Source of the DNA: an uncultured Candidatus Saccharibacteria bacterium
Lineage (GTDB): Bacteria > Patescibacteriota > Dojkabacteria > SC72 > WJKH01
Length of the DNA: 64,000 nt
Direction of reading: 5' to 3'
Assembly: GCA_964602665.1 (NCBI GenBank)
Contig: CAZRRH010000001.1
Coordinates: 8,414 to 72,413 of the forward strand
Part shown: positions 245-58,316 of the stretch, one piece after another
Numbering within the stretch: position 1 is the stretch's first letter
Layout: each line of letters starts with the position of its first letter
Notes under the pieces: generated by a model
Databases searched by the model: none
The model's input: only the letters and a program-made list of their open reading frames with translations
Told to the model about the DNA's origin: nothing
Made by a program: the position numbers and the translations under genes

Positions 245-670
245 TTAAAAACCCTTCGCCAGGAGAATTTTTGATTTTTTCGCCGCGATCTTGCTGTTGA
301 TATTATGCCATGGGATTTTTTCTATGTCGCTGAATTTGATCCATTTGCTTTCAATGTGTTCATTGCTGATTTTCACATCTTGCTTGCCAACTAATTTACA
401 TAGAAAAAATACCGAGTACTTCGCGGGGTTCTCAATGCCCCATCTGGCAACGTGCACAGGGGAAATGACTTTGATTTTTAAGCCCGTCTCCTCTAGCACC
501 TCACGTTGCAAGCCGAACTCAGGCTGGTCGTCAGCATTGAGCCTGCCACCGGGGAACATCCACATCTCTTTTGTAAATTCTTTGTTTAGTGGCAGTCTTA
601 AAATCAAAAATTCTCCTCGTTGATTTACGATAACGCCATATTCACCGACATTGCATTTTAATCTCTTCAT
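245..670 (-). CDS. NUDIX hydrolase
   Basis: Nudix box GGRLNADDQPEFGLQREVLEETGL (GX5EX7REUXEEXGU pattern) in the 141-aa ORF. Confidence 0.8.
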   Translation of the reverse strand: MKRLKCNVGEYGVIVNQRGEFLILRLPLNKEFTKEMWMFPGGRLNADDQPEFGLQREVLEETGLKIKVISPVHVARWGIENPAKYSVFFLCKLVGKQDVKISNEHIESKWIKFSDIEKIPWHNINSKIAAKKSKILLAKGF

Positions 671-742
671 ACTTGGTAGGTTTTTAATTTATTTCCGATA
701 ACTCTCTCTTATACGAACTGTATTCACTTAATAAACTTAAAA

Positions 743-771
743 TTGCATGCAATGCGAACAAGTGTTATAAT
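743..771 (+). promoter_or_regulatory. sigma70-like promoter TTGCAT-N17-TATAAT upstream of the recombinase gene
   Basis: Hexamers TTGCAT and TATAAT separated by exactly 17 nt, ending about 20 nt before the ATG at 792. Motif match only, in an AT-rich genome. Confidence 0.35.
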
Positions 772-791
772 ACAAACTAATAACTCACACT

Positions 792-1631
792 ATGAATAAT
801 ATCAAAACCAAACAAAAAATACAAGAAGAAATCGCAACTACAGTAATGGAATTAAAAATAAGGAATTTTAGTTCAAAAACAATAAAAGCTTACACATACG
901 CCTTACGACAATACTTTACATATAAAAAGATCGACCTCAATAAACTAGAACAAAACAACATTCGTCAATACCTATACCAGTGCGAAAAGAAAAACATATC
1001 ACCACAAACACGTAATATATATTTATCTGCAATCAAGTTTTATTACTATAAAACAGTCAAAATACAGACCAAAATTCAAATACCAAATGCTAAAAAACCT
1101 CACAAACTACCAACCGTTCTTTCACGAAAAGAAATAAAGCAAATACTCGATGTGACAAAAAACACCAAGCACAAATTAATCCTCGCTCTTACATACGGAG
1201 CCGGATTACGAGTAAGCGAAGTCGTATCACTAAAAGTACAAGATTGTGATTTAGATGAGTTAATACTTCATATAAGACAGTCAAAAGGACAAAAAGACCG
1301 CATAACAGTAATCCCAGAGAAATTAATCTTGGATTTACAAAATCATATAGCTGGCAAAAACAGTACAGATCCTCTATTCTCAAGTGAACGCGGAGGTAAA
1401 CTAACAACAAGAACACTACAAAAAACCTTTGCCCGTTCATTGAAAAAATCACAGATAAAAAAATCTGCAACATTTCACTCATTGAGACATTCCTTTGCTA
1501 CACACCTACTTGAAAACGGAACAGATATACGGTACGTACAAGAGCTCCTAGGACATCAAAACATACGAACAACACAACTTTATACTCACGTTACAAACCC
1601 TAAATTAAAAAACATCAAAAGCCCGTTATAA
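792..1631 (+). CDS. tyrosine site-specific recombinase, XerC/XerD (phage integrase) family
   Basis: C-terminal catalytic signature GLRVSEV ... HSLRHSFATHLLENG ... LLGHQNIRTTQLYTHV (R, HxxR, Y) plus an N-terminal SAM-like domain. 279 aa. Confidence 0.8.
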   Translation: MNNIKTKQKIQEEIATTVMELKIRNFSSKTIKAYTYALRQYFTYKKIDLNKLEQNNIRQYLYQCEKKNISPQTRNIYLSAIKFYYYKTVKIQTKIQIPNAKKPHKLPTVLSRKEIKQILDVTKNTKHKLILALTYGAGLRVSEVVSLKVQDCDLDELILHIRQSKGQKDRITVIPEKLILDLQNHIAGKNSTDPLFSSERGGKLTTRTLQKTFARSLKKSQIKKSATFHSLRHSFATHLLENGTDIRYVQELLGHQNIRTTQLYTHVTNPKLKNIKSPL

Positions 1632-1723
1632 TTTTTATAAAAGAATTTATACAAAAACAGCTCTGAGTCGCTAAAGCTCGTGAAGCAATATATAAACGGC
1701 GGTTTTGATGATATAATATGCTC

Positions 1724-2179
1724 ATGAGACTATGGTCAATAAATCCTAAATATCTTGATTCAAAAGGACTTGTTGCACTATGGCGGGAATCACTACTTGC
1801 CAAAGCCGTCCTTACAGGTCAAACCAAAGGCTATAAACATCATCCACAACTTAATCGGTTTTATGATTCATCTGATCCAATATATGCTATTAATTTTTAT
1901 TTACAGTTTATCTATTACGAGGCACAAAAAAGGCACTATACTTTTTCATCAGACAAATTTTTGCACCAAGAAGATATCCCAAAATTCACTTTAGAGATAA
2001 CAAACGGGCAATTAGAATATGAAAAATCACACTTGATAAAAAAGTTGATGATTCGAGACCCCAGCAGAATCGAGCTGATTCATAAATTTAAGCTCCCAGA
2101 TCCTCACCCGCTCTTTACAGTCATCAAAGGAGAAATCGCCCCATGGGAAAACATGCAACATAAGGATAAACAATTTTGA
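1724..2179 (+). CDS. pyrimidine-dimer DNA glycosylase (T4 endonuclease V / Pyr_excise family)
   Basis: N-terminus MRLWSINPKYLDSKGLVALWRESLLAKAVLTG...HHPQLNRF resembles the endonuclease V family. I place the start at the third in-frame ATG (1724) to match the family N-terminus. TATAAT at 1712-1717 sits 6 nt upstream, which implies a leaderless mRNA. Confidence 0.55.
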   Translation: MRLWSINPKYLDSKGLVALWRESLLAKAVLTGQTKGYKHHPQLNRFYDSSDPIYAINFYLQFIYYEAQKRHYTFSSDKFLHQEDIPKFTLEITNGQLEYEKSHLIKKLMIRDPSRIELIHKFKLPDPHPLFTVIKGEIAPWENMQHKDKQF

Positions 2180-8158: not shown

Positions 8159-8590
8159 TCAGATCTTCTCAACACCGATCTTTCCTTCTGCTCGCTGTTT
8201 TTCGCGCTCTCGTTTGTCGTACTTTTTCCTTCCTTTACCAAGGCCAAGCTCGACCTTAATCTTTCCCGCCTTAACATAGAAAGATAGAGGTAATAAAGTA
8301 AGTTTCTCTTTGCTAATTCTCTCGGACAATCTACTAATTTGCGACGCATGAAGCAAAAGCTTGCGCGGTCGATATGGATCATACTCTTTTAATCCAGAAG
8401 CGTATTTATACAAAGAGATATTTACATTATAAAGCCAGAGTTCTCCGTGTTCCTCTCGCGCGAAACTATCAGCTAAACTTATACTACCATTTAAAACCGA
8501 TTTGACCTCGTGTCCTTGTAAAACAATTCCTGCCTCAATCTTATCGGAAATATCGTAATCGTAAAATGCTTTGCGGTTTTTAACTAACAT
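8159..8590 (-). CDS. smpB: SsrA-binding protein SmpB
   Basis: KNRKAFYDYDI...EAGIVLQGHEVKS...RPRKLLLH, the SmpB signature. 143 aa. Confidence 0.85.
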   Translation of the reverse strand: MLVKNRKAFYDYDISDKIEAGIVLQGHEVKSVLNGSISLADSFAREEHGELWLYNVNISLYKYASGLKEYDPYRPRKLLLHASQISRLSERISKEKLTLLPLSFYVKAGKIKVELGLGKGRKKYDKREREKQRAEGKIGVEKI

Positions 8591-11880: not shown

Positions 11881-12360
11881 TCAACAATACACAACAACTC
11901 GTGCAGGCCTAATAACCACATCTCCGAGTCTATATCCAAGCTGTATCACATCTGCAATCGTTCCCGATCTCTGCTTGTCGTCAGATGGTATTATAGACAA
12001 AGCTTCGTGATATGCGCTGTCAAATTTATGTCCTTTTACTACTTCAATCTTAGTTATACCCAATTCTACAAGTGTTGTCTCAATTTTGCTTAGTGAGCTT
12101 ATTATTCCATCCGCCCACGCTTTCTGTTTATCTTCAAACTTTATATCTGTATAAGCCTGCTTTGCCATATGCATGTCATCGAGTAGCGTAATTAATCCTC
12201 TTGCAATTTTTGCGCTCTGCTGAGTTAAGGCGATGTCAAGACGGTTATCAATGGTCTTTTCTAAGTTTATATAATCCGCCAGAACCCTTTTGAGTTGATT
12301 AGTTATTTTCTCGTTTTCTTCATGTAGCCTTTTGATTTCATCAATTTTTGCTTTTTTCAT
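11881..12360 (-). CDS. grpE: nucleotide exchange factor GrpE
   Basis: Coiled-coil N-terminus plus C-terminal GrpE motif (GDVVIRPARVVV). Adjacent to hrcA. Confidence 0.85.
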   Translation of the reverse strand: MKKAKIDEIKRLHEENEKITNQLKRVLADYINLEKTIDNRLDIALTQQSAKIARGLITLLDDMHMAKQAYTDIKFEDKQKAWADGIISSLSKIETTLVELGITKIEVVKGHKFDSAYHEALSIIPSDDKQRSGTIADVIQLGYRLGDVVIRPARVVVYC

Positions 12361-12390: not shown

Positions 12391-13110
12391 TTAAGCCCAA
12401 CCCGTAAGAGATTCCTCTATAGCTTTTCTTATACTCTTTATCAGGTTAAGCATTTTAGCATAGTCAACTCGCCTTGGTCCAATAACTCCAAAATATGCAT
12501 TATCACCAATTAAACCAACTGTTGTGTAAGCTAAAGAACAGTCAGCTAGGTCATCAATTCCTAGCTCTTGACCAATAATTAGCCCGACATCGTTTGTATT
12601 GTATTTAGAAAGAATAGTTTTAAGAAGTATCTGATCTTCAAGCAAATCCATAAGTCGCTCCATTATATACACCTCTCTTAACTCCTGATATCGCATCAAT
12701 CTTGACAAACCGTAATATCGCAATTGACTGCCTTTTATAAGAAAACTCGCTCCTACAATATTATCAGATAACACGGAAAGAACCTCGTCAACAAGGCCTT
12801 GCTCGTCAAATCTTTTTTTGAAAATTTCATTGCGAACAGCAGGGTCTTCTACGCCGTTTCTTTTTACAACATCTTGGACATACATTCTAAATGCCAAATC
12901 AGTAGGGATTCTGCCTGATGAAAAATGGCTTTTTGCAAGATATCCTTTCTCCATTAGTGCAGCCATTTCATTACGGATTGTAGCAGAGCTAATATCGTAA
13001 TTGTATCTTTTTATTAGTTGATTAGAACTTACTTCTTGTGCTGTGAGGATGTATTCTTCAATTATACTTTTCAATATGTCTATTTGTCTTTGGGTAAGAT
13101 CGCTAATCAT
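12391..13110 (-). CDS. hrcA: heat-inducible transcription repressor HrcA (short, 239 aa)
   Basis: N-terminal winged HTH TQRQIDILKSIIEEYILTAQEVSSNQLIKRY...ATIRNEMAALMEKGYLAKSHFSSGRIPT, the HrcA signature. Confidence 0.75.
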   Translation of the reverse strand: MISDLTQRQIDILKSIIEEYILTAQEVSSNQLIKRYNYDISSATIRNEMAALMEKGYLAKSHFSSGRIPTDLAFRMYVQDVVKRNGVEDPAVRNEIFKKRFDEQGLVDEVLSVLSDNIVGASFLIKGSQLRYYGLSRLMRYQELREVYIMERLMDLLEDQILLKTILSKYNTNDVGLIIGQELGIDDLADCSLAYTTVGLIGDNAYFGVIGPRRVDYAKMLNLIKSIRKAIEESLTGWA

Positions 13111-13114
13111 ATAT

Positions 13115-13141
13115 TTGGCAATTAATTTTATGCTCTGCTAA
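13115..13141. promoter_or_regulatory. degenerate CIRCE-like inverted repeat upstream of hrcA
   Basis: TTGGCAATT-N9-CTCTGCTAA against CIRCE TTAGCACTC-N9-GAGTGCTAA. It lies 5-31 nt upstream of the hrcA start. Only partial match. Confidence 0.25.
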
Positions 13142-13207
13142 AAATTTTACAATGTTTTTGATATATTGTCAATCAATACTTATGCAATTTATGCATTTTA
13201 CAGCGTT

Positions 13208-14425
13208 TTACCGACGGGAGTTTACAAATTTGAGGCTAAGTTCCGATGGGATGCCAAATTTTAATCTAAATTCTTCAGCAGGAAATTCTTCTGTATCACC
13301 TTTATTAATCCACAACAAAATTTTATTTCTGGCTTTTTCTAATGTCTTTTCATAAACCTCGTTGTGATCAACTATTATTTTTAATACTTTTGCCTTTTTA
13401 TCATTCAAATATGGATATCTATCAGAATAATAAGAGCATACTTCATCAAGAGTCTCACTAATCACCTTAATATCTAGCTCATTAATTTTTAATATCGTTA
13501 AAACCTTTCTTATTAACCTTCTGATTATCCTTGCTCTTCCGTTATTACCAGGATTTGGAGCGCCGTCAGCAAGAAGAAACATCAGAGCAGTAACATGATC
13601 GGTAAAGATTCTTAAATCAACATCATTCATTTTTACTTTTTTCGCAATTAATTTCGGTAAATTATTTTCAAATACACTTTTCAAACCATTTTTTGACATA
13701 ATTAATCTCTCAATTCCAAAGACAGTCTCAAAAGCCTGATTTTGCAATTTAATAATTTTATTTTGTGTCGTTATACCGCTTGTGATGAAAAGATTGTTCG
13801 ATATTTCAATAAATCTTCCGCATTTACAAAACGGATTACAATTAGTATTTTTACATCCCTTTTTCTCAGTATCATAAAAAATTTCTGTTGTAACACCACA
13901 CAACCGTAATTCAGAAATAATTTTATCAGAAGGCCCTTGCACCCATATATTATCTTTGATTTTACCAAAATGAACATTTCTCTCTCCAAGAAGTTTCAAC
14001 CAACCGTAATATGAGTCTTTGTCTTTCATAAATTTATGCCTCATATATACACCACCGCCAAAAACTGTTGCATGAATTTTTTCTTTTTTAAAACCAAGAT
14101 TTACAAGAAGATCAAAAAGCTTTTTAATCTCATCTTCCTTTGAGTAATCCCCAACAATAAAAGCTCCGGCCATTTCAAAAAAGCTTAAATGAGTATCGTC
14201 ACCGATTAAATCAATATCAAAATGCCTGAAGCATTTCTGTATCACAGAAATTTTTCGGTTTATTTTATGAGGCAATTTAATTAATGGGTCAAGCTGTACC
14301 ATTCCTGCAGACATATTAAAAGACATCGGAAACATCTCATGAACAAGAGAAGCAGATGGCTGATTCTCATAATCATATCTATTAAAGTATTTAATAAATT
14401 CTATCGCTAAATTATTAGCTTCCAT
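13208..14425 (-). CDS. alaS: alanyl-tRNA synthetase catalytic fragment (aminoacylation + tRNA-recognition domains only; no editing or C-Ala domain)
   Basis: SAGMVQ (E. coli TNAGMNQF), SVIQKCFR (TTSQRCVRAGG), HLSFFEMAGAFIVGDY (HHTFFEMLGNFSFGDY), TTEIFYD, GRFIEISNNLF (RYIEIWNIVFMQ), FGIERL, TDHVTALMFLLADGAPNPGNNGRARIIRRLIRK. The ORF ends at the equivalent of about E. coli residue 455. Confidence 0.8.
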   Translation of the reverse strand: MEANNLAIEFIKYFNRYDYENQPSASLVHEMFPMSFNMSAGMVQLDPLIKLPHKINRKISVIQKCFRHFDIDLIGDDTHLSFFEMAGAFIVGDYSKEDEIKKLFDLLVNLGFKKEKIHATVFGGGVYMRHKFMKDKDSYYGWLKLLGERNVHFGKIKDNIWVQGPSDKIISELRLCGVTTEIFYDTEKKGCKNTNCNPFCKCGRFIEISNNLFITSGITTQNKIIKLQNQAFETVFGIERLIMSKNGLKSVFENNLPKLIAKKVKMNDVDLRIFTDHVTALMFLLADGAPNPGNNGRARIIRRLIRKVLTILKINELDIKVISETLDEVCSYYSDRYPYLNDKKAKVLKIIVDHNEVYEKTLEKARNKILLWINKGDTEEFPAEEFRLKFGIPSELSLKFVNSRR

Positions 14426-14484
14426 ATGACTAAATTATACCATGTCGTCCCCAATATTACAACCTTATATCAACAAATCAACAA

Positions 14485-14513
14485 TTGCATAATCCTGCTA
14501 AATATGGTAAAAT
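14485..14513 (+). promoter_or_regulatory. sigma70-like promoter TTGCAT-N17-TAAAAT upstream of rplY
   Basis: Hexamers with exact 17-nt spacing about 30 nt before the ATG at 14543. Confidence 0.3.
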
Positions 14514-14542
14514 AACGCCAATAAGTTTAAAAGAAAAGCAAA

Positions 14543-15226
14543 ATGTCAGACAGTACAAACGAATTAAAGCTAAAAAAGCGAACAGAACTTGGCAAAAAGT
14601 GTAAAAATTTAAAAAGCAAGGGAATAACAACCGCTGTAATATACAATCATAAAACAGAATCAATTCCACTACAAGTAGAAAGCAACACATTATTAAAACA
14701 TCTTGCAAATCTTTCTCTTACTACAATATTTGATCTTGATATAGACGGTAAAAAAGTCAAGGCGCTTGTTAAAGAGGTCCAAAGGCACCCAATAACTGAT
14801 CAGATCACGCATATTTCATTCCAAGAAATCGAGCCAACAAGAAGAATGAGATTTAATGTACCAATAGAAATAACCGGTGTCTCACCAGCAGTTAAAAACA
14901 ATCTTGGTACGCTTATTGTCGTTAAGGACTCAGTTGAGGTCAAGTGTACACTCAACGATCTACCACACAATATCACAGTAGATATTTCAGGGCTTGAGAA
15001 TGTTGGTAACACAATACAGATTAAGGGTATTGCGCTTCCAAAAGGACTAGAGCTTGTTCGAAAGGAAGATGAGGAGCTTACAGCAATAACCATATCTGAA
15101 CTTGAGAAAGAAATCGTTATTGAGGAAACTGTGGCCAGTACTGAGGCAACAGAAGAAGGAGCAGCAGTTGAAGGCGAGCCAGCAATTGAAGCTAAAGATG
15201 GCACTACAGAAGTTAAAGCTGAGTAA
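14543..15226 (+). CDS. rplY: ribosomal protein L25 / general stress protein Ctc (long form)
   Basis: N-terminal L25 beta-barrel (LKLKKRTELGKKCKNLKSKGITTAVIYN) plus a Ctc-type C-terminal extension. 227 aa. Confidence 0.8.
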   Translation: MSDSTNELKLKKRTELGKKCKNLKSKGITTAVIYNHKTESIPLQVESNTLLKHLANLSLTTIFDLDIDGKKVKALVKEVQRHPITDQITHISFQEIEPTRRMRFNVPIEITGVSPAVKNNLGTLIVVKDSVEVKCTLNDLPHNITVDISGLENVGNTIQIKGIALPKGLELVRKEDEELTAITISELEKEIVIEETVASTEATEEGAAVEGEPAIEAKDGTTEVKAE

Positions 15227-31929: not shown

Positions 31930-32350
31930 GGGGACGCAAGGCTTTCGACAGGGATTGTCTTCTTTATATTACAAGCAGGGTTTGACTCACCTTTATAATA
32001 GAGTCGGCAAAATAACTGCCAAAACAAATATTGCAACTTGGATAAGCGAGAAAGCACAGAATTTGTTTGCCTCACTAAGGCCAGCATTTCAGTACCAACT
32101 CCTTGCCTAGTTTATCTCTAAGGAGATACGCTTTTAATCACTCCTCCCAAATCGAGGGGTTATAGGCGGCTAAGAGGTTTGGGTGTAGCAAGATGGCTTC
32201 TCTTGGCCAAGCTATCTTGTCAAATTTATGTGCCAGGCGTGTTATCTTTTTTGCTCACTTAAGATGATAGCATGTATAACAAGTGAGATAAGCTTGTATA
32301 ATAGTATGAGGAAGGATTTCTGGATATGGGTTCAATTCCCGTCGTCTCCA
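31930..32350 (+). ncRNA. ssrA: transfer-messenger RNA (tmRNA)
   Basis: 5' end GGGGACGCAAGGCTTTCGACAGGG (the tmRNA acceptor and D-analogue signature). The 3' end GGGTTCAATTCCCGTCGTCTCCA has a T-arm and an acceptor strand complementary to the 5' GGGGACG. CCA is not encoded. A candidate tag frame ends ...ASLRPAFQYQLLA before a TAG at 32108-32110. Confidence 0.8.
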
Positions 32351-39810: not shown

Positions 39811-42800
39811 TTAATTGTTTTTAGAAATAATCACTCTCTCATTTGCTTTAATTCCATTAATCTCGTCCGCACCAAGAATATAGTATGTACTGGTTCCTCC
39901 GTCAAAATCTCCCAAACTTTTTGCTCTGACAAGATAATTAAATCCATTGTAATTAGAAGAATAATACGGCGAGATTGTTGTAACGCCATAATTATAAGTA
40001 TATGTGCTATTAAAGCCCCAGTATTTATAATATTTACTGCGAACTTCGGATGGAATACTAAAAAATCCTCCGTCAAAGACATCAAGTCCTGATGGCACTT
40101 CATCTTTGACGACAACCTCATTTTTATTTTTGCTGTCCTCAATATTTATTTTTACGACATAATATTTACCTTCTTTAAGATCTTTTGCTAAAACCTGCTT
40201 ATTAGTATCTAAATCATAATACTCTCTAACTATATTTCCACCAGAATCACCTTGAGCTTCATCCTGTTTTACAATTTTTATTAGTACAAAAAGCTCTCCT
40301 AAATTATCAGATTTTAGTTTGATTTCATTTGAGCCGTTCTTAAGTTTACTCGGATCAATTGAATATATACAGCCCTTCTCTTTTACTTGAGCATCAGCCA
40401 ATTTCTCGTTATTAACAAATATCTCCATTGTTCCTGATTTAACAATAGAATTAATTCTTCCCTCTTCAGCCAAGGCAAGGACATACGATATCCTCTTATA
40501 ATCCTGCCTACTGTTAACAAACTGCATATTTCGATCCAAAAGCCACGATCTTACTTTATACTTTAACTGCCATTGATCGAGTGGTGCAAGTGCAAGATAT
40601 ACATTGCTTGTGACAATATCTGATACGGCAATATTCTTATAAAGTGAATCAACATCCTCCCAATATGCATATCTATCTCCTGACTTTACTGTCTGTAAAA
40701 GATATTTTACGAGTTCTTGAGCGTTCCCTGTGCTACCTATATTGTTATATGTAAGCATCAAAGAAGAAATAGCCACAGGAGAATTAACAAGTTCAGATGT
40801 TTCAAAACTCTCTCTCACAACCAGCATATATTGTATAACAACCGCTTTATCCAAATATGACAAACCGTATAAAGCAACAATTTTTTGTTCCAAAGTATAT
40901 TTCTCATCTCCAAGGATAAAAATGAAGTACGCTTTTAATCTTTCTATTCTACTATAATCAACAGATATGCCGTTTTTTTGCATACTATCTAGTGCCTGCG
41001 CCGCAAAAACAGATGATTCAATGTTCTCTGCATCATAGTCAAACCAACCAAACCCTCCAATTTCTGTCTGATTTTGGATTAACATTTCATAATAATCTTG
41101 TATTTTCTTATACAAATCGGCCTTCTGATAATCTGTAATTTCTAAGCTATCGTAATTTTTATACATATAGCTGTAGAAAAGGATAGAATTCGCAAGGTCA
41201 TTTGTTGATTTAAGCTGTGCAGAAGAAATAGATATAAAATCAGTTACAGGAAAAGATGGCGAAAGACAGACATCAACACTCGTAAACTCCTCTGAAATCT
41301 CGCCCAAATTGGCATCAATTGTAACTTCTCCTACATTGCTATCAAGTAAACCAGAAATACTTTCATTTTTCGTCTTACCTGAATTATAAATTGGAATCAT
41401 TACTGGTGTTTGTTCTGTTTTTTTATCGCCTATTTTAATGTACGGATAAATCTTGAGCTTATTATTAGAACCTGTTTCTAGAATTTCTATAGGTACATTT
41501 ATAACTTTTACTTCTTGCTTATCAACGATTATTTCCTCTTTCCAATCTTTTGTTACGCAACCAGTACATTCAAATCCTACTTCTGCTTCAAATTTATCAG
41601 AGTAATTCTTAACTATTAATGAAATTTCTGTCTTATCTGAACTTCTTACATACTCAGGAGTATTAACATCTACGAATTTATCAAGACGACTAACAATCTC
41701 GACTGAGTTTTGACCATATAAATCTTGAGGATTTGTTGCAGTAGCAGTAATTACCCATTTCGTAAGATTATTTGGCATCTTAAATCTTATTGTTCCATTT
41801 CCGCTTTGATCAGTATACACAGCTCCGAGATTAATAAAGTTACGGCTGTTTTTTGAAATCGATCCCGTTTTATTTATTTCATCTGTAAAACCAACATCAT
41901 CGCCATAATAATCTGGGCCAACATTATCAAAAATCGGTGTAGATCCAAAATATTTACTCCAATAACCACTATCAAAATCATAAAAAGGATTATTGATAGA
42001 ATTTGTAGTATAGCCAAAAGATAGATCTGCAACTCTTTTATCAACAACATATAAATTAATTAGTGCAGGAGTGCCCTGACCATCTTTTTTACTCTTTATA
42101 TTCAAAATCACCTCTTCATCTGGCTTGTACTCTGTTTTTTGAGTTTTCATATCAATATCTAAAACAGTACTTGGTCCATCAAATGACACATATGTACATT
42201 GCATAATAAACATTTTCTTGTTTGGATTCTTGCTGGCGACCTCTTTATCATAAAAATTTGAAGGCGATAAACCTACTGAGTAAGCACAAAGCCCAACAGA
42301 GCCTCTTGCATCATTAGGAATCTTTATTTTTCCTGTTGTACTTTTATCAAAAGTTACTGTGCTCCAATCACCTATTTTATCTGTCTGTACAAATATTGTA
42401 GCATTTTTATAAACATCGCTTTTTACAGTATATTCAATTTCCTGTCCTGGTTTTACTTCTGCATCATTATTTGCAGATATTGACAGTAACTCTTTATAGT
42501 CACCCCCACCGCTTCCAAATGATGTGACATAAACAGCTCCCAAATATTGCTTTACTAGGTCAGAATTCTTAGCATAAATAACGATATCATAGCTACCTCC
42601 GATAAGCTCATCAAATTGCCAAACTGCTTGACCTTTATCATCGGTTATAAACTCTTTTTCTGCAATGACTTTTTTATTAACTACATATGAGCCAGGATAT
42701 ATCATGGATTTCGTCTCATCATCATAATAAGGCTCTCCTGTAACATACTCTCTTACATTTTTTATAAGCTTTGCGCTAAACTCAACGCCGTTTAGAGGCT

Positions 42801-45192
42801 TGCCACTCCATATTTGATCAGCTAAAAATACGATTTCCACAGGTTTATTCTCTTGATAAAAAGATGCTATTCCATTTTCTGCAAACCTTATGTTAACAGT
42901 ATAATTTGAAACCAACAACAATTTTTGAGCGACGATACTGTCTTGAGCATTTCTTACTTGTAAAATAAGCGTCTTAAATGGACTACTGTTATCGTTTAAT
43001 TTTACTTGATAATCAGTGCTCCATTTTCCGTTTTTATCAAGAGTTATTTTCTCGTCATATATTGATACTGCTTCTCCATCGCCATAACCATAAAAAACTG
43101 AGTTAAGATCATATATAAAATCATCATAATTCCTCCCAGAGGTTTCAAGCCATGAATATTGGAAATCACCTTCATAAACAACCACTCGCATTTCTTGTGA
43201 TATAAGAGGCATTCCTGCGTAGTCTTCACCACTAAAATCTATCTTGACTTTTTCATTGGCAACAAGTTTCTGTTTATCGATTTGTAAATCATAAATATAA
43301 TCAGACTGTGTATTAGGCTCTACCATAATAAACTCCCTGCCAATAATCAGCCCTTGGTATTCAACAACAATTTCATATGACTTACTTTGAGTATTTGCCA
43401 GCAAATCAAAATTATCCTCTATATAACCAAACTGATTGTCCAAAACATAATCTTTTCTCTTTAAAACCGCTGTACCCTCTTTTATATAAACAGTCATTTG
43501 CTCACCTTCTAATTCCTCACTCTGAATATTACCCTCTAATTTTTTTACAAATATGCTGTAATTAACTGTGTCTCCAGGCGCATAAATCATCTTATCAGTA
43601 TCAACAAGAGCAGCGTTTGTTCTAACCGTTGTTTGTTCGTAAAAGCTGACATTCGCTCGATTACTTACAACTATCGTACCAACGGGGCTAGTTACTTTCA
43701 AAATATCACAGTTATCCATCTTAAAATAGCCTTTTTTATTTGTACTTGCTGTACAATCAGCTATCTTTTCATTATTGCTACCGTATGTAAACTTTGTTTT
43801 TCTACTGTTATAACCAACTATTTGAGCATCGCCTATTAGCTGTTCTTTGTCCATATTCCAAACCCAACCCTCAAGTTTTCCATCCAAGTAGCTTGAGAAA
43901 ACAGCCCCCTGTGAATATGAATAAACAATTAACTTCTGTCTAGAATTCTTGCTGTTTTTATACTGCAAAATGTATTGTCCATCTTGAACCGGTTTATACT
44001 CAAAATCAAAATTACCAAAGCCATAAGGGTAATCTTTTGTGTACACTATTTTGGCAGAATCAGGAATAGCTTTTAAAATTCCATCTGTATACAAAATATT
44101 TTCAATCAAATCGTCTGCCTCAATAGAATAAATATTTATAGTAAAAACTGTATCAGAAGGAAACCCAGAGTAATAAAACCTCTCAAATATCTTATCATTA
44201 ATACTCATATGAGTACTATCAAGATAATTTGTACCAATAAATTGTTTATCATCCAAAATTTTACCTGCCCTATCTTGATCAGTCGTGCGGAAAGTAAATT
44301 TACTGTCGTAATCAATTGTTTCACCATCTAAAGTCGCAATTCCTTTTTTTACAACAACTGAGTAATCTGTGTTTATCAAAAACGGAGTTTCTGGCATAAA
44401 CAAAACTTTTGTTCCATACTGTGTAAATTTACCGCTGATCTGAGGATAAACATCTATATAATCAGTAAGCTTATTGATATCAACATTTTTTTTGTTAAAC
44501 TCAAACTCTATCGTGCTATCATAAGGAACATTTGTTGTATTATTTCTTGGAGTAGTGGCAAGAAGAGCAAATTTAGGATTAACTGTGTATTTCCAAACAA
44601 GATCATTCTCCAAAACAGCATCATTACTAAACTTTGTCCCGGCAGGGATAATAATGCTGTACTCTTGTCCCTCGATTAAACTTGACTCGGGCTTAATCAA
44701 TATTTGCTGATTACCCGCTGAATCTTTTGTTGCCTCAAATACAATTTCTGTTTCAGGCTCAATACGAACTATTTTATTAATATTGCCTTTTATTTCGCCA
44801 TTAATTTCTAATGTAAAAGTACTATCCTGTGTTAGATATCCTGACTGAGTAAATTGCTGTGGCTCTATACTCATAGCAGGAGCAGCAGGTAAAATTTTAT
44901 AATCAGAAATACTCTTATCTTGCTGTCTAAACACACCAACCAGATACAAGATACCAAATAAAAAAATAAAACTCGTTAAGAGTGCAAGAGAGCCAAATAC
45001 AAATTTTTTACCGCCTTTACTCTCTGCAAAAGCACCTTTTTCTATTTTCTTTGCGATCACGAGATTAGAAGATTTTTCAGATTCGCTCACACCTAAACTA
45101 GACAGCTTCTGTGCTAATTTTGCGTCAAGGGTGGCAAAATCTTTGCTTTCTTCCACTTTCTTAATTTTTTTTATCAAACTTTTTATGTCCAT
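39811..45192 (-). CDS. giant (1793 aa) membrane-anchored alpha-2-macroglobulin-family-like protein without a CxEQ thioester motif
   Basis: Cytoplasmic N-terminus of about 65 aa, one TM (FVFGSLALLTSFIFLFGILYLVGVF), a long series of Ig/MG-like beta domains, a TED-like region with GGFGWFDYDAENIESSVFAAQAL (compare A2M/C3 GGF/GGGYGSTQ...ALAQY), and a C-terminal receptor-binding/MG8-like VVVKDEVPSGLDVFDGGF. No CxEQ found. The corresponding position reads CLSPS. Confidence 0.45.
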   Translation of the reverse strand: MDIKSLIKKIKKVEESKDFATLDAKLAQKLSSLGVSESEKSSNLVIAKKIEKGAFAESKGGKKFVFGSLALLTSFIFLFGILYLVGVFRQQDKSISDYKILPAAPAMSIEPQQFTQSGYLTQDSTFTLEINGEIKGNINKIVRIEPETEIVFEATKDSAGNQQILIKPESSLIEGQEYSIIIPAGTKFSNDAVLENDLVWKYTVNPKFALLATTPRNNTTNVPYDSTIEFEFNKKNVDINKLTDYIDVYPQISGKFTQYGTKVLFMPETPFLINTDYSVVVKKGIATLDGETIDYDSKFTFRTTDQDRAGKILDDKQFIGTNYLDSTHMSINDKIFERFYYSGFPSDTVFTINIYSIEADDLIENILYTDGILKAIPDSAKIVYTKDYPYGFGNFDFEYKPVQDGQYILQYKNSKNSRQKLIVYSYSQGAVFSSYLDGKLEGWVWNMDKEQLIGDAQIVGYNSRKTKFTYGSNNEKIADCTASTNKKGYFKMDNCDILKVTSPVGTIVVSNRANVSFYEQTTVRTNAALVDTDKMIYAPGDTVNYSIFVKKLEGNIQSEELEGEQMTVYIKEGTAVLKRKDYVLDNQFGYIEDNFDLLANTQSKSYEIVVEYQGLIIGREFIMVEPNTQSDYIYDLQIDKQKLVANEKVKIDFSGEDYAGMPLISQEMRVVVYEGDFQYSWLETSGRNYDDFIYDLNSVFYGYGDGEAVSIYDEKITLDKNGKWSTDYQVKLNDNSSPFKTLILQVRNAQDSIVAQKLLLVSNYTVNIRFAENGIASFYQENKPVEIVFLADQIWSGKPLNGVEFSAKLIKNVREYVTGEPYYDDETKSMIYPGSYVVNKKVIAEKEFITDDKGQAVWQFDELIGGSYDIVIYAKNSDLVKQYLGAVYVTSFGSGGGDYKELLSISANNDAEVKPGQEIEYTVKSDVYKNATIFVQTDKIGDWSTVTFDKSTTGKIKIPNDARGSVGLCAYSVGLSPSNFYDKEVASKNPNKKMFIMQCTYVSFDGPSTVLDIDMKTQKTEYKPDEEVILNIKSKKDGQGTPALINLYVVDKRVADLSFGYTTNSINNPFYDFDSGYWSKYFGSTPIFDNVGPDYYGDDVGFTDEINKTGSISKNSRNFINLGAVYTDQSGNGTIRFKMPNNLTKWVITATATNPQDLYGQNSVEIVSRLDKFVDVNTPEYVRSSDKTEISLIVKNYSDKFEAEVGFECTGCVTKDWKEEIIVDKQEVKVINVPIEILETGSNNKLKIYPYIKIGDKKTEQTPVMIPIYNSGKTKNESISGLLDSNVGEVTIDANLGEISEEFTSVDVCLSPSFPVTDFISISSAQLKSTNDLANSILFYSYMYKNYDSLEITDYQKADLYKKIQDYYEMLIQNQTEIGGFGWFDYDAENIESSVFAAQALDSMQKNGISVDYSRIERLKAYFIFILGDEKYTLEQKIVALYGLSYLDKAVVIQYMLVVRESFETSELVNSPVAISSLMLTYNNIGSTGNAQELVKYLLQTVKSGDRYAYWEDVDSLYKNIAVSDIVTSNVYLALAPLDQWQLKYKVRSWLLDRNMQFVNSRQDYKRISYVLALAEEGRINSIVKSGTMEIFVNNEKLADAQVKEKGCIYSIDPSKLKNGSNEIKLKSDNLGELFVLIKIVKQDEAQGDSGGNIVREYYDLDTNKQVLAKDLKEGKYYVVKINIEDSKNKNEVVVKDEVPSGLDVFDGGFFSIPSEVRSKYYKYWGFNSTYTYNYGVTTISPYYSSNYNGFNYLVRAKSLGDFDGGTSTYYILGADEINGIKANERVIISKNN

Positions 45193-53988: not shown

Positions 53989-56595
53989 CTACTCAATAAC
54001 AAAGTCAGCATTTTTAGTTGGCAAATATTTCTCCAAAGCTATACGAATTTCTTTTGACAACTTTTCGCTGATTTGTTCTTCGACTCCTCGCATCGCTATT
54101 CTTACAGTTTCCTGCCTTAAATCTTTCTTTTTCAATTCATCATTGCTGTAGATATCGACAGGCTCAAGCTCAAAATGAATTGGATATTTGCTTAAAATCT
54201 TTTCTATACCTTCAATAAGCTCTCTATGAGTCATTTTATTTTCGACTATATAACAAATATCTTGTACCATCTTAGGGAATTTAGTAGGAACATCCTCCGT
54301 CTTCTTACTATCAACAATGTTCATTAGTTCTTCAATGTTGATCTCAAATCCTGCTGTATGCTCTGGTATCTTCATCTTTTCAATCAGCTTGTAAGAAATT
54401 TGCCCCAATACGCCTAAATAAAATCTTTGCCCATTTAATTTATATATTAGGATACCGCTTTGATTATGGTCATACACATCTTTCATGTTTTCTAACCAAA
54501 CAGGAAGATCAACACAGCTATCCCATGACACAATATCTATTTTAGGACATCTAAGGAAATTAGATAGCTCCGTTAAATATTTTTTTGCACTATAATATCC
54601 TGTCCCTACTCCTTGCAAATCAGTATAAACAAGAGCGAGTGATCTAAACTCATAAGGAAGCCCTTCATTATTTAAAATATTTTTTACATGGAATTTATTA
54701 ACTTCAAATAAAACGAACTTTTTATACCCATTAGATATATTTAATGGCACTTTTGATATTACAGATGGCATTAATAACGATCTCATATACTCTAATTCAG
54801 GAGATATAGAGTTAGTAAGTCTAAACGAAGAGGTTTTAAGCGTAGGATTAATTTGATCATACAAATCTCTATTAATAAAACTGTAAGTAATTATCTCGTT
54901 ACCTCCCATTGCAATAAGTCCATTTCTTACCCGACTTTCGAGCTCAAGTACTTTATTTCTTTTAACAGGCTTAACTTTCCTGCTTGGTAATTTTAATGGA
55001 ATATTATTAAAGCCAGAAATTCTTGCGATCTCTTCATAAATATCTTCTTTGATAGATAAATCCTGCCTATATGTCGGAACAGAAACAACTAATACTTCTT
55101 CCTCATCATCAAGAGGACTATCATATCCATCTTTGACAACAAGCTCTGTCTCTTTTTGAGGAGTTAACTTCTCTTTTACAACAAGCTCTGCGTTTGACAG
55201 GGTAGAAATGACTTCTTTTTTTGTAAATGTCTTACCAATTATTTTATTAAGTCCATTAATGCTAAAAGCAACTTCTTTTTCGGATCTAGGAAATTGAAAG
55301 TCGTCGCAGATCTCACTAGCTAAATTACCATTTGCATGACTTTGTAGCATTTCAAGAGTTTTATGCAAAACAACCTCACACATGGCAGGATCTTGATTTC
55401 TTGAGTATCTAGTTGTCGCTTCGCTACTGATTCCAACTTTATTACTTGTCTTACGAATATTATACATATCAAAGTTAGCCGACTCCAATATTATTGTTTT
55501 ACTTTTAACATCTATTTCTGTATCAAGACCTCCCATAACGCCGGCAATTCCTATAGGATCTTCTCCATCAGTTATTACGACTATGGAACTATCTAACTTA
55601 ATTTTATCTCCGTTGATCACAGTTATCGTTTCGCCGTCTTTTGCCGTTCTAACAACAATACTTGCATCACAATCGCTACTGTTCTTAAGACATTTTGTTG
55701 ATCTGTTAACAACTTTATCGTAATCAAAAGCATGCAGTGGCTGTCCCGTCAACAACATCATATAATTTGTTATGTCTACTACATTGTTTATTGGCCTTAT
55801 GCCCGCTTTCGCTAATTCTATTTGCATCCAGATAGGAGATTGCTTTATTTCGATATTCTCGATTACGGCTCCCATATATCGAGGACATAGACTCCCTGCT
55901 TCATTCTTAACCTGTAAGTTATACTTATTTGAACTGTTAATCTTTATCTCTAGCAACTTGTGACCCGACCAATAATTAAACCAATCTGGCGTTTTGTACT
56001 CTAATCCTTGTATTGCACTAATCTCCCTTGCTATTCCGATTAAGCCAAAACACTCAGGACGATTTACCAAAGCTTTATTCTCGACCTCATATATGTAATC
56101 ATCTAAGCCGTAAAGAGAAGCAAAAGATTGCCCTGGCAAAGCATCATCGCCTATTTTATCATTTAATCTCATAACTTGTTCATGATTTCCTGATATATCA
56201 AGCTCTTTTGACGATGCCATCATTCCATTAGACTCAACTCCTCGTAGTTTTACAGCTCTAATAATGCCATCAAAATCATCAGGATGCATATTATGTGGCA
56301 CTCTCGTATTTGGCGGAATATAAGCAACTTTATCACCGACAGCAAGAGTCTTATCTCCTGCAACTACCTGTATAAGCTCCTCTTGCCCAATATCTATCTT
56401 ATACACATTTAACTTATCTGCATCAGGATGAGAGGCCACTTCCTTGATTTGAGCGACAATTATTCCTTTGTATTTCTCACTTAAATTCTCAATACTTTCA
56501 ACCTCTCCAATTCTTGTAGCGATAAGCTCAGCAAGTATTATTGGATCAACAACTACCTGAGTAAGCTTTTTTACACTATTTAATGAAATTCTCAT
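53989..56595 (-). CDS. pheT: phenylalanyl-tRNA synthetase beta subunit
   Basis: N-terminal tRNA-binding domain HPDADKLNVYKIDIGQEELIQVVAGDKTLAVGDKVAYIPP, B3/B4 and B5 regions, C-terminal anticodon-binding-like domain. 868 aa. Confidence 0.85.
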   Translation of the reverse strand: MRISLNSVKKLTQVVVDPIILAELIATRIGEVESIENLSEKYKGIIVAQIKEVASHPDADKLNVYKIDIGQEELIQVVAGDKTLAVGDKVAYIPPNTRVPHNMHPDDFDGIIRAVKLRGVESNGMMASSKELDISGNHEQVMRLNDKIGDDALPGQSFASLYGLDDYIYEVENKALVNRPECFGLIGIAREISAIQGLEYKTPDWFNYWSGHKLLEIKINSSNKYNLQVKNEAGSLCPRYMGAVIENIEIKQSPIWMQIELAKAGIRPINNVVDITNYMMLLTGQPLHAFDYDKVVNRSTKCLKNSSDCDASIVVRTAKDGETITVINGDKIKLDSSIVVITDGEDPIGIAGVMGGLDTEIDVKSKTIILESANFDMYNIRKTSNKVGISSEATTRYSRNQDPAMCEVVLHKTLEMLQSHANGNLASEICDDFQFPRSEKEVAFSINGLNKIIGKTFTKKEVISTLSNAELVVKEKLTPQKETELVVKDGYDSPLDDEEEVLVVSVPTYRQDLSIKEDIYEEIARISGFNNIPLKLPSRKVKPVKRNKVLELESRVRNGLIAMGGNEIITYSFINRDLYDQINPTLKTSSFRLTNSISPELEYMRSLLMPSVISKVPLNISNGYKKFVLFEVNKFHVKNILNNEGLPYEFRSLALVYTDLQGVGTGYYSAKKYLTELSNFLRCPKIDIVSWDSCVDLPVWLENMKDVYDHNQSGILIYKLNGQRFYLGVLGQISYKLIEKMKIPEHTAGFEINIEELMNIVDSKKTEDVPTKFPKMVQDICYIVENKMTHRELIEGIEKILSKYPIHFELEPVDIYSNDELKKKDLRQETVRIAMRGVEEQISEKLSKEIRIALEKYLPTKNADFVIE

Positions 56596-56615: not shown

Positions 56616-58316
56616 TTAAAATTGTTTTAAGAAATCTAAATTTCCTCCTCTTATGTCACGAATATTCTTAATGCCTGCTCTTATCATGACAAGTCTATCA
56701 AGTCCAAATCCCCAGGCAAATCCAGAATATATATTTGGATCAATCCCCGCCAGTGATAAAACATTAGGATGAATAACACCACAACCTACAAGCTCAATCC
56801 AACCATGATGCCCACAAGTACTACATCCTGTTTTTTTACAGAAAGGACAAGACATACACAACTCAAGTCCCGGCTCAACAAACGGAAAATGTGATGGCTG
56901 TAATTTTACTTCTAACTTTGTCTGATAATACTCCTCCAAAAAGCTATGCATCACAGCTTCCATATTACTTAAACTAATCCCCTTATCTACATAGATTCCT
57001 TCTAAATGCGCTAAAGTATGTTCATGCCTATCATCTGTTGCTTCATTTCTATAACAAGTACCTGGAACTATAAATCTAATAGGAGGTTTATTGCTTTTTA
57101 ATATACGATTTTGCATAGTAGAAGTATGGGTTGTCGGAATAAGCCCTTCTTCTGTATGGAAAGTATCCCACATATCTCTCGCAGGATGGCCATCAGGGAA
57201 ATTTAGCGCTGTAAACATATTGTAATCGCTATCAAGCTGTCTTGCGTCTTGCACAGAAAACCCCATGGATAAAAATATCTTAGAAATCTCCTCTAGCTCT
57301 GCACTTAACGGGTTCTTATGCCCTCTATCAGGAATCAATTGAGGTCTATCCTTTTGCTCACTATTGACTCCAAAAGGAGCTGTTAAATCAATCTTATAAG
57401 ATTTCTTAGCTGTCTTCTCAGCTTCTAACAACTGTTTCCATTTTTCTTGTGCAGACATTTTTAATATATTAACTTTCTTACCATATTCTGCCCTCTCTTC
57501 ACCTGATTTGTTCTTTATCTCTTGCAGAAGATTTGTTATTAGACCGTTTTTACCAAGATATTTGTCCTCAAATTGTTTTGCTGTTAGACTCTGGCTATCC
57601 ATCTCTTTAATTATATCAGAAAATTCTATTGAACTAGCATTGTCAACAATCTCATATCTAATTCTCACATTATCACTGCCTTCCTTTTTTATCTTAACAA
57701 TTTTTAGTCCCGCTAATTTACTTGTATTATCGGCATGCGTACCCCCACATAAATCTTCAACATCATCTCCAATATGCAAAACACTTTTATGTTCATCAAT
57801 GCAAACTACTTTCATATTTAAAGCCAATTTTATTATCTTATCAACCTCTTTCTGAAGATCATCAGTATTACGAGGCTCCCCTTGATACTGAACATAAGCA
57901 GCCTCTTTATAATGATAGCCCTTAATTGGCTTATAATCCCAAGCCAAATTTCTCACCGCCAAGTCAATAATGTGACCAGCGCTATGATAAATGCTATTAA
58001 TAGATCTGACATCTTTATCTATGGAAACTTTTACGGTATCACCTTTATTAAAGTATCCCTGTTTTATTGTCCCTAGATGAAGTATTTTATCAGCTTCTTT
58101 ATCTTTATATACTTTCTCGACTTGAAAAAGAGCGCTACCTTTTACTATTGTACCGATATCTGATGGCTGTCCCCCTCCCTGTGGATAAAAAGGCGTTTTA
58201 TCAAGCAATATTGCCGTATGAGTAATTCCATCAATCGTCTCCTCCTCTAATTCGATTATTTTGGCCTCAACCGTCATTAATTGTGGATTATGCTTATAAA
58301 TCAGCTCTGTTTTCAT
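56616..58316 (-). CDS. pheS: phenylalanyl-tRNA synthetase alpha subunit fused to an N-terminal AlaX-M / AlaRS-editing-type domain
   Basis: Residues 1-230 match the AlaX/AlaRS editing-domain fold: LLDKTPFYPQGGGQPSDIG, HxxxH (YHSAGHIIDL), CxxxH (LCGGTHADNTS). Residues 235-566 are canonical PheS: FPDGHPARDMWDTF, PTTHTSTMQ, GTCYRNE...HLEG, SHFPFVEPGLEL, GWIELVGCGVIHPNVL, GFAWGFGLDRL. It is a single uninterrupted ORF. Confidence 0.8.
   Translation of the reverse strand: MKTELIYKHNPQLMTVEAKIIELEEETIDGITHTAILLDKTPFYPQGGGQPSDIGTIVKGSALFQVEKVYKDKEADKILHLGTIKQGYFNKGDTVKVSIDKDVRSINSIYHSAGHIIDLAVRNLAWDYKPIKGYHYKEAAYVQYQGEPRNTDDLQKEVDKIIKLALNMKVVCIDEHKSVLHIGDDVEDLCGGTHADNTSKLAGLKIVKIKKEGSDNVRIRYEIVDNASSIEFSDIIKEMDSQSLTAKQFEDKYLGKNGLITNLLQEIKNKSGEERAEYGKKVNILKMSAQEKWKQLLEAEKTAKKSYKIDLTAPFGVNSEQKDRPQLIPDRGHKNPLSAELEEISKIFLSMGFSVQDARQLDSDYNMFTALNFPDGHPARDMWDTFHTEEGLIPTTHTSTMQNRILKSNKPPIRFIVPGTCYRNEATDDRHEHTLAHLEGIYVDKGISLSNMEAVMHSFLEEYYQTKLEVKLQPSHFPFVEPGLELCMSCPFCKKTGCSTCGHHGWIELVGCGVIHPNVLSLAGIDPNIYSGFAWGFGLDRLVMIRAGIKNIRDIRGGNLDFLKQF

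Follow-up and report, generated by a model that had tools for sequence, protein, structure and literature searches.

Among the synthetases, alanyl-tRNA synthetase (AlaRS) is considered the one whose architecture is most conserved. The E. coli fragments comprising residues 1-441 and 1-461 are active and well studied, and in Nanoarchaeum equitans the enzyme is split, its catalytic and editing parts being encoded by separate genes and the two halves of the one canonical AlaRS reassembling. Reduced architectures have also been described. The mini-AlaRS of Tupanvirus (TuAlaRS), reported to descend from the AlaRS of the amoebal host through domain loss, consists of a catalytic domain and a tRNA-recognition domain only (PMC10036535), and 'small-AlaRS' is a reduced form reported from the candidate phyla radiation (CPR), DPANN and Asgard (bioRxiv 10.1101/2023.05.29.542759). 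Here we examine a 64-kb stretch of DNA from an uncultured CPR bacterium (contig CAZRRH010000001.1; the whole stretch is called the window below), in which a free-standing gene encodes a 405-residue protein, termed the core, that consists of the class II catalytic domain and the helical tRNA-recognition domain of an AlaRS. Sequence comparisons place the core in a distinct clade that lacks editing domains and carries a remodelled amino-acid pocket, and not among minimized versions of the ordinary enzyme.

The core resembles each of the reduced systems in part. It shares its domain content with TuAlaRS, to which it can be likened from the published description; in contrast to the viral enzyme, however, it belongs to an old bacterial clade in a CPR context. 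A phage or mobile origin was considered and rejected, as no relatives of the clade were found in IMG/VR or among GenBank phages, and the matches in phage collections were ordinary AlaRS of about 27% identity. Small-AlaRS (NF002436, about 595 aa) retains both editing and the Asp/Gly pocket, as P0408, P0419 and P0421 show; the core is without either and groups across the main split of the tree from them. The arrangement also differs from that of N. equitans in that the editing domain found in the window is of AlaX-M origin and is carried by another synthetase, while the core comes from a different clade.

Domain content and fold of the core

Residues 9-400 of the core match positions 5-404 of the 552 positions of PF01411 (tRNA-synt_2c; E 1.4e-51), and just the first ~406 positions of the NCBIfam alaS models are matched. 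No match to tRNA_SAD or DHHA1 was obtained in a Pfam scan of the 405-residue protein. Catalytic fragments of AlaRS in the PDB align with the core end to end at about 25% identity from residue ~3-6 onward, in agreement with an initial annotation of the window, which had the alignment begin at the N-terminus. An AlphaFold (AF2) model made from 75 relatives (pLDDT 94.1, pTM 0.92) superposes over its full length on the AlaRS catalytic fragments of E. coli, human, Aquifex and Methylomonas (TM 0.83). The canonical N-terminal fragment (E. coli 1-441, PDB 3HXU; Methylomonas AlaRS429, PDB 9JC7) thus has the same fold and the same pair of domains, although the core is the product of a natural stand-alone gene. 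From these profile, PDB and model matches it follows that the gene encodes the catalytic domain, the tRNA-recognition domain and nothing more.

In the catalytic domain we find the motifs QKCFRHFD (residues 63-70, with R67), FFEM (82-85), DNIWVQG (with W161), a Cys cluster (191-202), IEISNNLFI (with N210 and L212) and FETVFGIERL (with E233, V235, G237, E239 and R240). The tRNA-recognition domain includes DHVTALMFLLADGAPNPGNNGRARIIRRLIRK (residues 276-307) and retains the Arg-rich helix. The C-terminal end of the protein lies opposite residue 417 of E. coli AlaRS (counting Met as 1), and not near residue ~455 as had been proposed.

When the core is compared with a canonical AlaRS (EC 6.1.1.7), a class II catalytic domain bearing the Arg of motif 2 and the G-x-E-R of motif 3 is present, but the protein stays under the curated whole-protein cut-offs (192 versus 529 bits for NF002436, its top-scoring curated model, and 160 versus 457 bits for TIGR00344), and both the Asp235/Gly237 pocket and the cis editing and C-Ala domains are missing.

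The amino-acid pocket and the tRNA-reading positions

Pocket residues R69, W170, N212, V214, D235 and G237 are given here in E. coli numbering without the Met, and N303 and D400 with the Met as residue 1. Relative to E. coli AlaRS, the core keeps R69 (as R67), W170 (W161), N212 (N210) and L229 (L227), together with FFEM and the motif-3 G-x-E-R, and replaces D235 by Glu (E233), G237 by Val (V235) and V214 by Leu (L212). The canonical alanine pocket is thus incomplete, three of its six residues (R69, W170, N212, V214, D235 and G237) being replaced. An insertion of 7-8 residues follows W170 in the core and its clade relatives, and the recognition helix of the clade reads DGAPxPGxxGRxRII where the canonical enzyme has DG-VxPSNExRGYxLRR. 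The G3:U70 reader N303 is Asn in the window protein and Lys or Arg in its relatives, and no acidic residue stands at the position of D400. The statement in the initial annotation that all class II AlaRS catalytic motifs are present is accordingly true of R67, W161, N210 and G-x-E-R, but not of D235, G237 and V214, which are replaced, and the N303 and D400 positions are unconserved. Across 75 members of the clade, R67, E84, W161, N210, L212, E233, V235, G237, E239 and R240 are all invariant.

The replaced positions include residues to which published work assigns a part in substrate selection. Asp235 has been described as the conserved, essential ligand of the alpha-amino group in AlaRS, which makes misactivation of serine unavoidable, and the Methylomonas residues Val204 and Leu219, which correspond to V214 and L229 in E. 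coli, as conserved discriminators; it has also been reported that one mutation of a pocket neighbour can abolish serine misactivation (PMC12143591).

A homologous catalytic fold is found in the alpha subunit of bacterial GlyRS (GlyQ), which has Glu and Thr at the positions of D235 and G237, compared with Glu and Val in the clade. The relevant segment reads GEITYGLER in E. coli glyQ (L071:3408-4319), VDTGMGLER in AlaRS and (T/F)ETV(I/F)GxER in the clade (window residues 232-241), so the clade matches GlyQ at both pocket positions, with Glu and a beta-branched residue. Overall, however, the core is far more similar to AlaRS than to GlyQ, and its helical tRNA-recognition domain is AlaRS-like. In one clade protein with two cores in tandem (P0372), Pfam gives a weak match to GlyRS-alpha at the GlyQ-like motif.

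A separate clade of cores without editing domains

We surveyed 261 AlaRS cores obtained from a word-indexed search and an exhaustive search of representatives. Glu and Val occupy the D235 and G237 positions in 158 proteins of at most 520 aa and in all fusions to GAF or kinase domains, and the proteins of 521-1000 aa with Asp and Gly at these positions read D-T-G-x-G-x-E-R without exception (64 of 64). Those Asp/Gly proteins that were scanned carry the editing-domain marker tRNA_SAD, whereas the one 976-aa protein of the Glu type that we examined has no editing domain. Altogether, none of the Glu-type proteins examined has an editing domain, and all proteins that do have one are of the Asp/Gly type. 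A midpoint-rooted neighbour-joining tree gives an exact split between a Glu clade of 177 leaves and an Asp/Gly clade of 84 leaves. The window protein lies within the former, in a 37-leaf subclade of proteins of 400-424 aa, and it has all of the clade motifs: CFRHFD, WxQGGG followed by the insertion, EISNxLFI, (T/S)E(T/S)V(I/F)GxER and DGAPxPGxxGRxRII, with no editing domain.

To judge from these motifs and the tree, the core belongs to a distinct, editing-less Glu/Val clade. Its initial description as a minimal AlaRS with aminoacylation and tRNA-recognition domains only is correct as to domain content, but the separate clade and the altered pocket and reader positions distinguish it from a minimized ordinary AlaRS. 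The Glu/Val clade is apparently a separate, undescribed clade of synthetase cores, and in the literature searched we found no description of it or of its kinase fusions. Two further features were tried as clade traits and dropped. The deletion of the 'AGGK' loop (loss of K73) is uninformative because the loop is found only in the E. coli type and most canonical AlaRS are without it, and the Cys cluster, CxxxxCxPxCxC, is common to the core and many canonical AlaRS.

A scan of 185,579 species-representative genomes with two peptide patterns, a collection to which the genome of the window does not belong, returned 33 loci, mostly from Chloroflexota (Anaerolineae, Caldilineaceae and Promineifilaceae). 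Because two peptide patterns were used, these clade counts are lower bounds. The CPR contributed five species representatives, namely one each from Beckwithbacteria and Roizmanbacteria, two under the label Saccharibacteria and one labelled no more closely than Patescibacteria, and no locus from Dojkabacteria appeared in this two-pattern scan of limited sensitivity. CPR carriers besides the window genome include GCA_964490125.1, MGAI01, JBDRQW01 and JBGSIU01. Cyanobacterial members of the clade carry the NCBI name 'alanine--tRNA ligase-related protein'.

The genomic contexts fall into different types. At 25 of the 33 loci, all of them of Chloroflexota type, the core gene adjoins genes for receiver proteins and for giant histidine kinases with multiple GAF domains (L006-L030; for example, L006:2125-9198 and L030:7352-12880). 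Fusions within one polypeptide also occur: in P0371 and P0373 a pair of cores precedes GAF and HATPase domains, and in P0406 (Anaerolinea sp.) and P0411 a single core precedes GAF domains, with HATPase at the end of P0411. From the order of genes and domains, the Chloroflexota arrangement appears to be a synthetase-like module, so far undescribed, that provides input to two-component signalling. CPR-type copies, which are thinly scattered and patchy, stand alone beside genes for BrnT/CopG toxin-antitoxin, Fic, type I restriction-modification, PIN, resolvase and bAvd proteins (L038:11246-11801, L041:11949-21248 and L039:8768-9133), in what look like flexible genome regions without conserved synteny. 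Within 6 kb of the clade members at the 33 loci there is no editing or AlaX gene, and no dedicated tRNA gene adjoins them.

Integrity of the gene and its locus

Gene calls on three independent contigs give the identical 405-aa product; P0001, on a 288,444-bp NCBI contig, is an identical protein. Relatives among the matches listed (at least 120) are 400-460 aa long and match PF01411 alone, and the closest of them stop at the same residue. When the C-terminal half of E. coli AlaRS was compared with the 64-kb window by tblastn, it matched the N-terminus of PheS and the N2 domain of ThrRS and no other region. The gap before hrcA, put at about 100 nt in the initial annotation, measures 97 nt and carries a strong promoter-like sequence, TTGACA-17-TAAAAT (13172-13144; a consensus match), placed for hrcA. 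Since relatives share the stop and the spacer bears a promoter-like site, the core is not the product of a frameshift or truncation. The homologues have the same length, and the spacer contains no coding remnant; the earlier conclusion that no editing or C-Ala domain follows is borne out, and a frameshift hiding a C-terminal extension, which would have refuted it, is rejected. The open reading frame (ORF) is an intact, conserved gene and not a truncated canonical alaS.

A second allele (P0002, contig L043:1-1534, compared with window positions 13050-14600) has 74% amino acid identity to the window core and the same length and stop position. The comparison gives a dN/dS of 0.13 with a dS of 1.27, and the core gene is under purifying selection. 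The flanks that could be compared between L043 and the window are short, about 110-160 nt each; identity is 93% in the flank towards L25 and 100% in the stretch made up of the hrcA promoter and the first 20 hrcA codons, whereas over the gene body it is just 62-85%. Within the spacer, the half nearer to hrcA (about 13160 and lower) shows 100% identity and the stop-codon side about 78%. A deep allele within near-identical flanks suggests recombinational allele replacement at the core locus. None of 26 distant CPR hrcA-grpE loci that we examined has an AlaRS gene upstream. Coordinates of the core gene, its neighbours and the pheST genes are collected in Table 1.

Table 1. Features of the core locus and the pheST locus, in window coordinates.
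Feature	Position	Strand	Basis or remark
AlaRS-type aminoacylation core CDS, free-standing, Glu/Val clade, 405 aa	13208..14425	-	ATG to TAA, stop included
Class II catalytic domain of the core, residues ~1-245	13691..14425	-	Motifs, alignment to E. coli and family, secondary structure of model
Helical acceptor-stem (tRNA-recognition) domain of the core, residues ~246-405	13211..13690	-	Alignment and model
Promoter-like site TTGTAA-17-TATAAT, TG-extended	14434..14462	-	Consensus match only; 9 nt upstream of core start codon
Non-coding spacer, core stop to hrcA, 97 nt	13111..13207	-	
hrcA, 239 aa, downstream neighbour, not part of the enzyme	12391..13110	-	Pfam HrcA
grpE, after hrcA	11881-12360		Pfam GrpE
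AlaX-M::PheS ORF, whole, 566 aa	56616..58316	-	
Trans-editing domain of AlaX-M type (PheS residues 1-~230)	57627..58316	-	Pfam, NCBIfam, alignment
PheS proper (N-terminal coiled coil and class II core), in-frame fusion to AlaX-M domain	56616..57626	-	
pheT, after pheS	53989-56595	-	

Other features of the window can be mentioned briefly. A tyrosine recombinase gene (792-1631) lies between genes for a NUDIX hydrolase and a pyrimidine-dimer glycosylase (window 245-2179), on the left margin of a region otherwise devoted to housekeeping. The tmRNA gene (31930-32350, plus strand) has a predicted tag that is unusually long (AKTNIATWISEKAQNLFASLRPAFQYQLLA), and SmpB is encoded 23 kb away (8159-8590, minus strand). 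A 1793-aa alpha-2-macroglobulin-like protein (A2M, MG2, bMG10 and Big_5 domains; 39811-45192, minus strand) is large for a small CPR genome.

An AlaX-M domain fused to PheS

The initial annotation had also noticed an AlaX domain on PheS, the alpha subunit of PheRS, and this assignment is confirmed. The N-terminal part of the protein matches tRNA-synt_2c positions 463-551 and tRNA_SAD in Pfam and the NCBIfam AlaXM model (NF040865; E 4e-27), in the latter case with 95 bits against a cut-off of 300. It contains FYPQGGGQPSD (43-53), HSAGH (111-115) and CGGTH (190-194), with the HxxxH and CxxxH zinc motifs intact. The domain shares the beta-barrel (FYPQGGGQ) and the editing core with AlaX-M proteins, but those are free-standing proteins of ~230-250 aa, whereas the window domain is fused in frame to PheS and is without a segment of ~20 aa just before CGGTH. 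It is related most closely to free-standing AlaX-M proteins from other CPR lineages (35-40% identity), and not to AlaRS editing domains.

The AlaX-M::PheS fusion is found in 13 protein clusters, one of which is named Dojkabacteria (P0156). The plain PheS proteins most similar to that of the window are also named Dojkabacteria or WS6, and most Dojkabacteria PheS are plain proteins of ~345 aa. On all three fusion contigs examined, the fusion gene sits in a thrS-infC-rpmI-rplT-pheST operon. In the distant fusions P0146 (L002:10001-11851, 1.13-Mb contig) and P0156 (L003:10001-11824, GCA_016932785.1), DGGTM or DGGTL stands in place of CGGTH, and because the CxxxH ligands are thereby replaced, the editing domain of these two proteins is probably dead. 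In the literature searched we found no description of an AlaX-PheS fusion.

The link between the core gene and the fusion is circumstantial. The two contigs with the distant fusions (1.13 Mb and 598 kb) are neither among the core's 120 relatives listed nor among the loci of the pattern scan, and the fusion is thus not strictly tied to the core. A comparison by sequencing run is uninformative as to whether core and fusion occur together, since P0123, P0002 and P0003 come from three different runs.

PheT of the window (868 aa) has the tRNA_bind, B3_4, B5 and core domains and no FDX-ACB match, and PheT of the fusion loci L002, L003 and L042 has FDX-ACB. ThrRS (60509-62290, minus strand; 593 aa) has tRNA_SAD, the class II core and the anticodon-binding domain, with no match to TGS (N1).

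Proposed function of the core

Given that the ATP and carboxylate ligands (R67 and the motif-3 residue R240), W161, N210, E233 and the Arg-rich helix are kept, the core has most likely retained the adenylation of a very small amino acid, which it would then pass to a tRNA acceptor end. In the mechanism that we propose, the core would bind ATP and the amino acid in a pocket narrowed by L212 and V235, and would form the aminoacyl adenylate with E233 as the acidic ligand of the alpha-amino group. We infer alanine as the default substrate; the pocket is like that of bacterial GlyRS-alpha at two positions, but specificity for glycine is speculation. The amino acid would then be transferred to an acceptor end gripped by the Arg-rich helical domain, and the core itself would perform no proofreading.

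For the cellular role, the reading that we prefer is that the core is an accessory synthetase-like paralogue present beside a conventional alaS located outside the window, rather than the sole AlaRS of the cell, and we regard this as about an even call. We prefer it because the changes in the pocket and at the reader positions are clade-wide, because outside the CPR the clade consists of paralogues and is linked to kinases, because CPR copies are rare and lie in flexible contexts, and because the allele at this locus appears to have been replaced. A separate clade with a remodelled pocket leaves a role as the cell's only AlaRS unproven. If the core is accessory, the AlaX-M domain on PheS would be an independent trans-editing device, a 'third sieve', and not a dedicated partner.

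Several points weigh against an accessory role. CPR genomes are small and seldom keep paralogues of aminoacyl-tRNA synthetases, and there is no conventional alaS in the 64 kb of the 288-kb contig that the window covers. The neighbourhood of the core gene is a housekeeping one (L25, hrcA-grpE, rpoBC and ribosomal proteins), and the gene has a promoter-like site of its own, as judged by its match to the consensus. The count of clade members in the CPR is itself a lower bound from a pattern scan of limited sensitivity. In the window copy of the AlaX-M domain, as in its closest relatives (P0122-P0126), the zinc ligands are kept, in contrast to the distant fusions, and the intact HxxxH and CxxxH motifs would fit an editing-less housekeeping AlaRS that needs editing in trans. 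Finally, the Tupanvirus mini-AlaRS, a core without the usual G3:U70 reader residues, is still a functional and specific AlaRS (PMC10036535).

The housekeeping neighbourhood, the small genome, the intact zinc motifs and the viral precedent all favour the principal alternative, in which the canonical alaS has been lost, the core charges tRNA-Ala as the sole housekeeping AlaRS, and trans editing by the AlaX-M domain that the alpha subunit of PheRS carries removes Ser-tRNA-Ala and Gly-tRNA-Ala. We hold this alternative to be possible but tentative. The N-terminus of PheS is the only other piece of AlaRS in the window, and retention of the ATP-binding and most of the amino-acid-binding residues, like the low dN/dS, points the same way. 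The L212/V235/E233 pocket may itself lower serine misactivation, which one mutation next to the pocket can abolish (PMC12143591). On the other side, the G3:U70 reader positions are unconserved, the CPR distribution is very patchy, in flexible contexts, and the core remains under the curated AlaRS thresholds. The core also stops ~25-45 residues short of the active E. coli fragments 1-441 and 1-461. Moreover, the conserved and essential Asp235 (PMC12143591) is Glu here and throughout a clade whose members are paralogues in large Chloroflexota and cyanobacterial genomes.

An alternative without aminoacylation, drawn by analogy with the kinase-fused relatives, is that the core plays a regulatory part like that of HisZ or the HisRS-like domain of GCN2 by binding alanine, ATP or uncharged tRNA, without supplying aminoacyl-tRNA. 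The fusion of clade members to GAF histidine kinases, or their presence in operons with these and with receiver proteins, would suit such a sensor, as would the altered reader and pocket residues. However, degenerate sensor domains usually lose the residues of adenylate chemistry, and because every one of these (R67, E84, W161, N210, E233, G237, E239 and R240) is invariant in the 75 clade members, we judge a sensor role to be improbable; CPR copies, in addition, have no adjoining kinase or other partner. That the gene is a broken canonical alaS with its 3' part lost, through an assembly error, a frameshift or a pseudogene, is suggested by its short length alone and is exceedingly improbable in view of the identical product on three independent contigs, the second allele and the 37 subclade members of like length, the remnant-free spacer with its hrcA promoter-like site, and the position of the core in another clade than canonical AlaRS.

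Implications

With its Asp235-based pocket, AlaRS has been considered unable to avoid serine misactivation and hence to do without editing, and an editing-less clade in which Asp235, Gly237 and Val214 are replaced offers a direct test of this view. Either the design of the pocket excludes serine, or fidelity is irrelevant, as it would be in signalling through the coupled GAF histidine kinases or in a non-ribosomal use of aminoacyl-tRNA. For annotation, the consequence is that marker-gene pipelines based on TIGR00344 will miss or mislabel Glu/Val cores.

A wider interpretation, which we put forward as doubtful, would unite the two settings of the clade. The Glu/Val cores would form an unrecognized family with a re-engineered pocket for small amino acids and no proofreading. 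In a few CPR lineages, including that of the window, they would have displaced the canonical AlaRS, with the AlaX-M domain on PheRS as the only proofreading; in Chloroflexota they would provide two-component kinases with an input module for amino acids or tRNA charging, in a bacterial parallel to the HisRS-like domain of GCN2. Should the copies in the CPR indeed be sole AlaRSs, the genome studied here would be a minimal case of proofreading outsourced to another synthetase, by way of the AlaX-M::PheS fusion.

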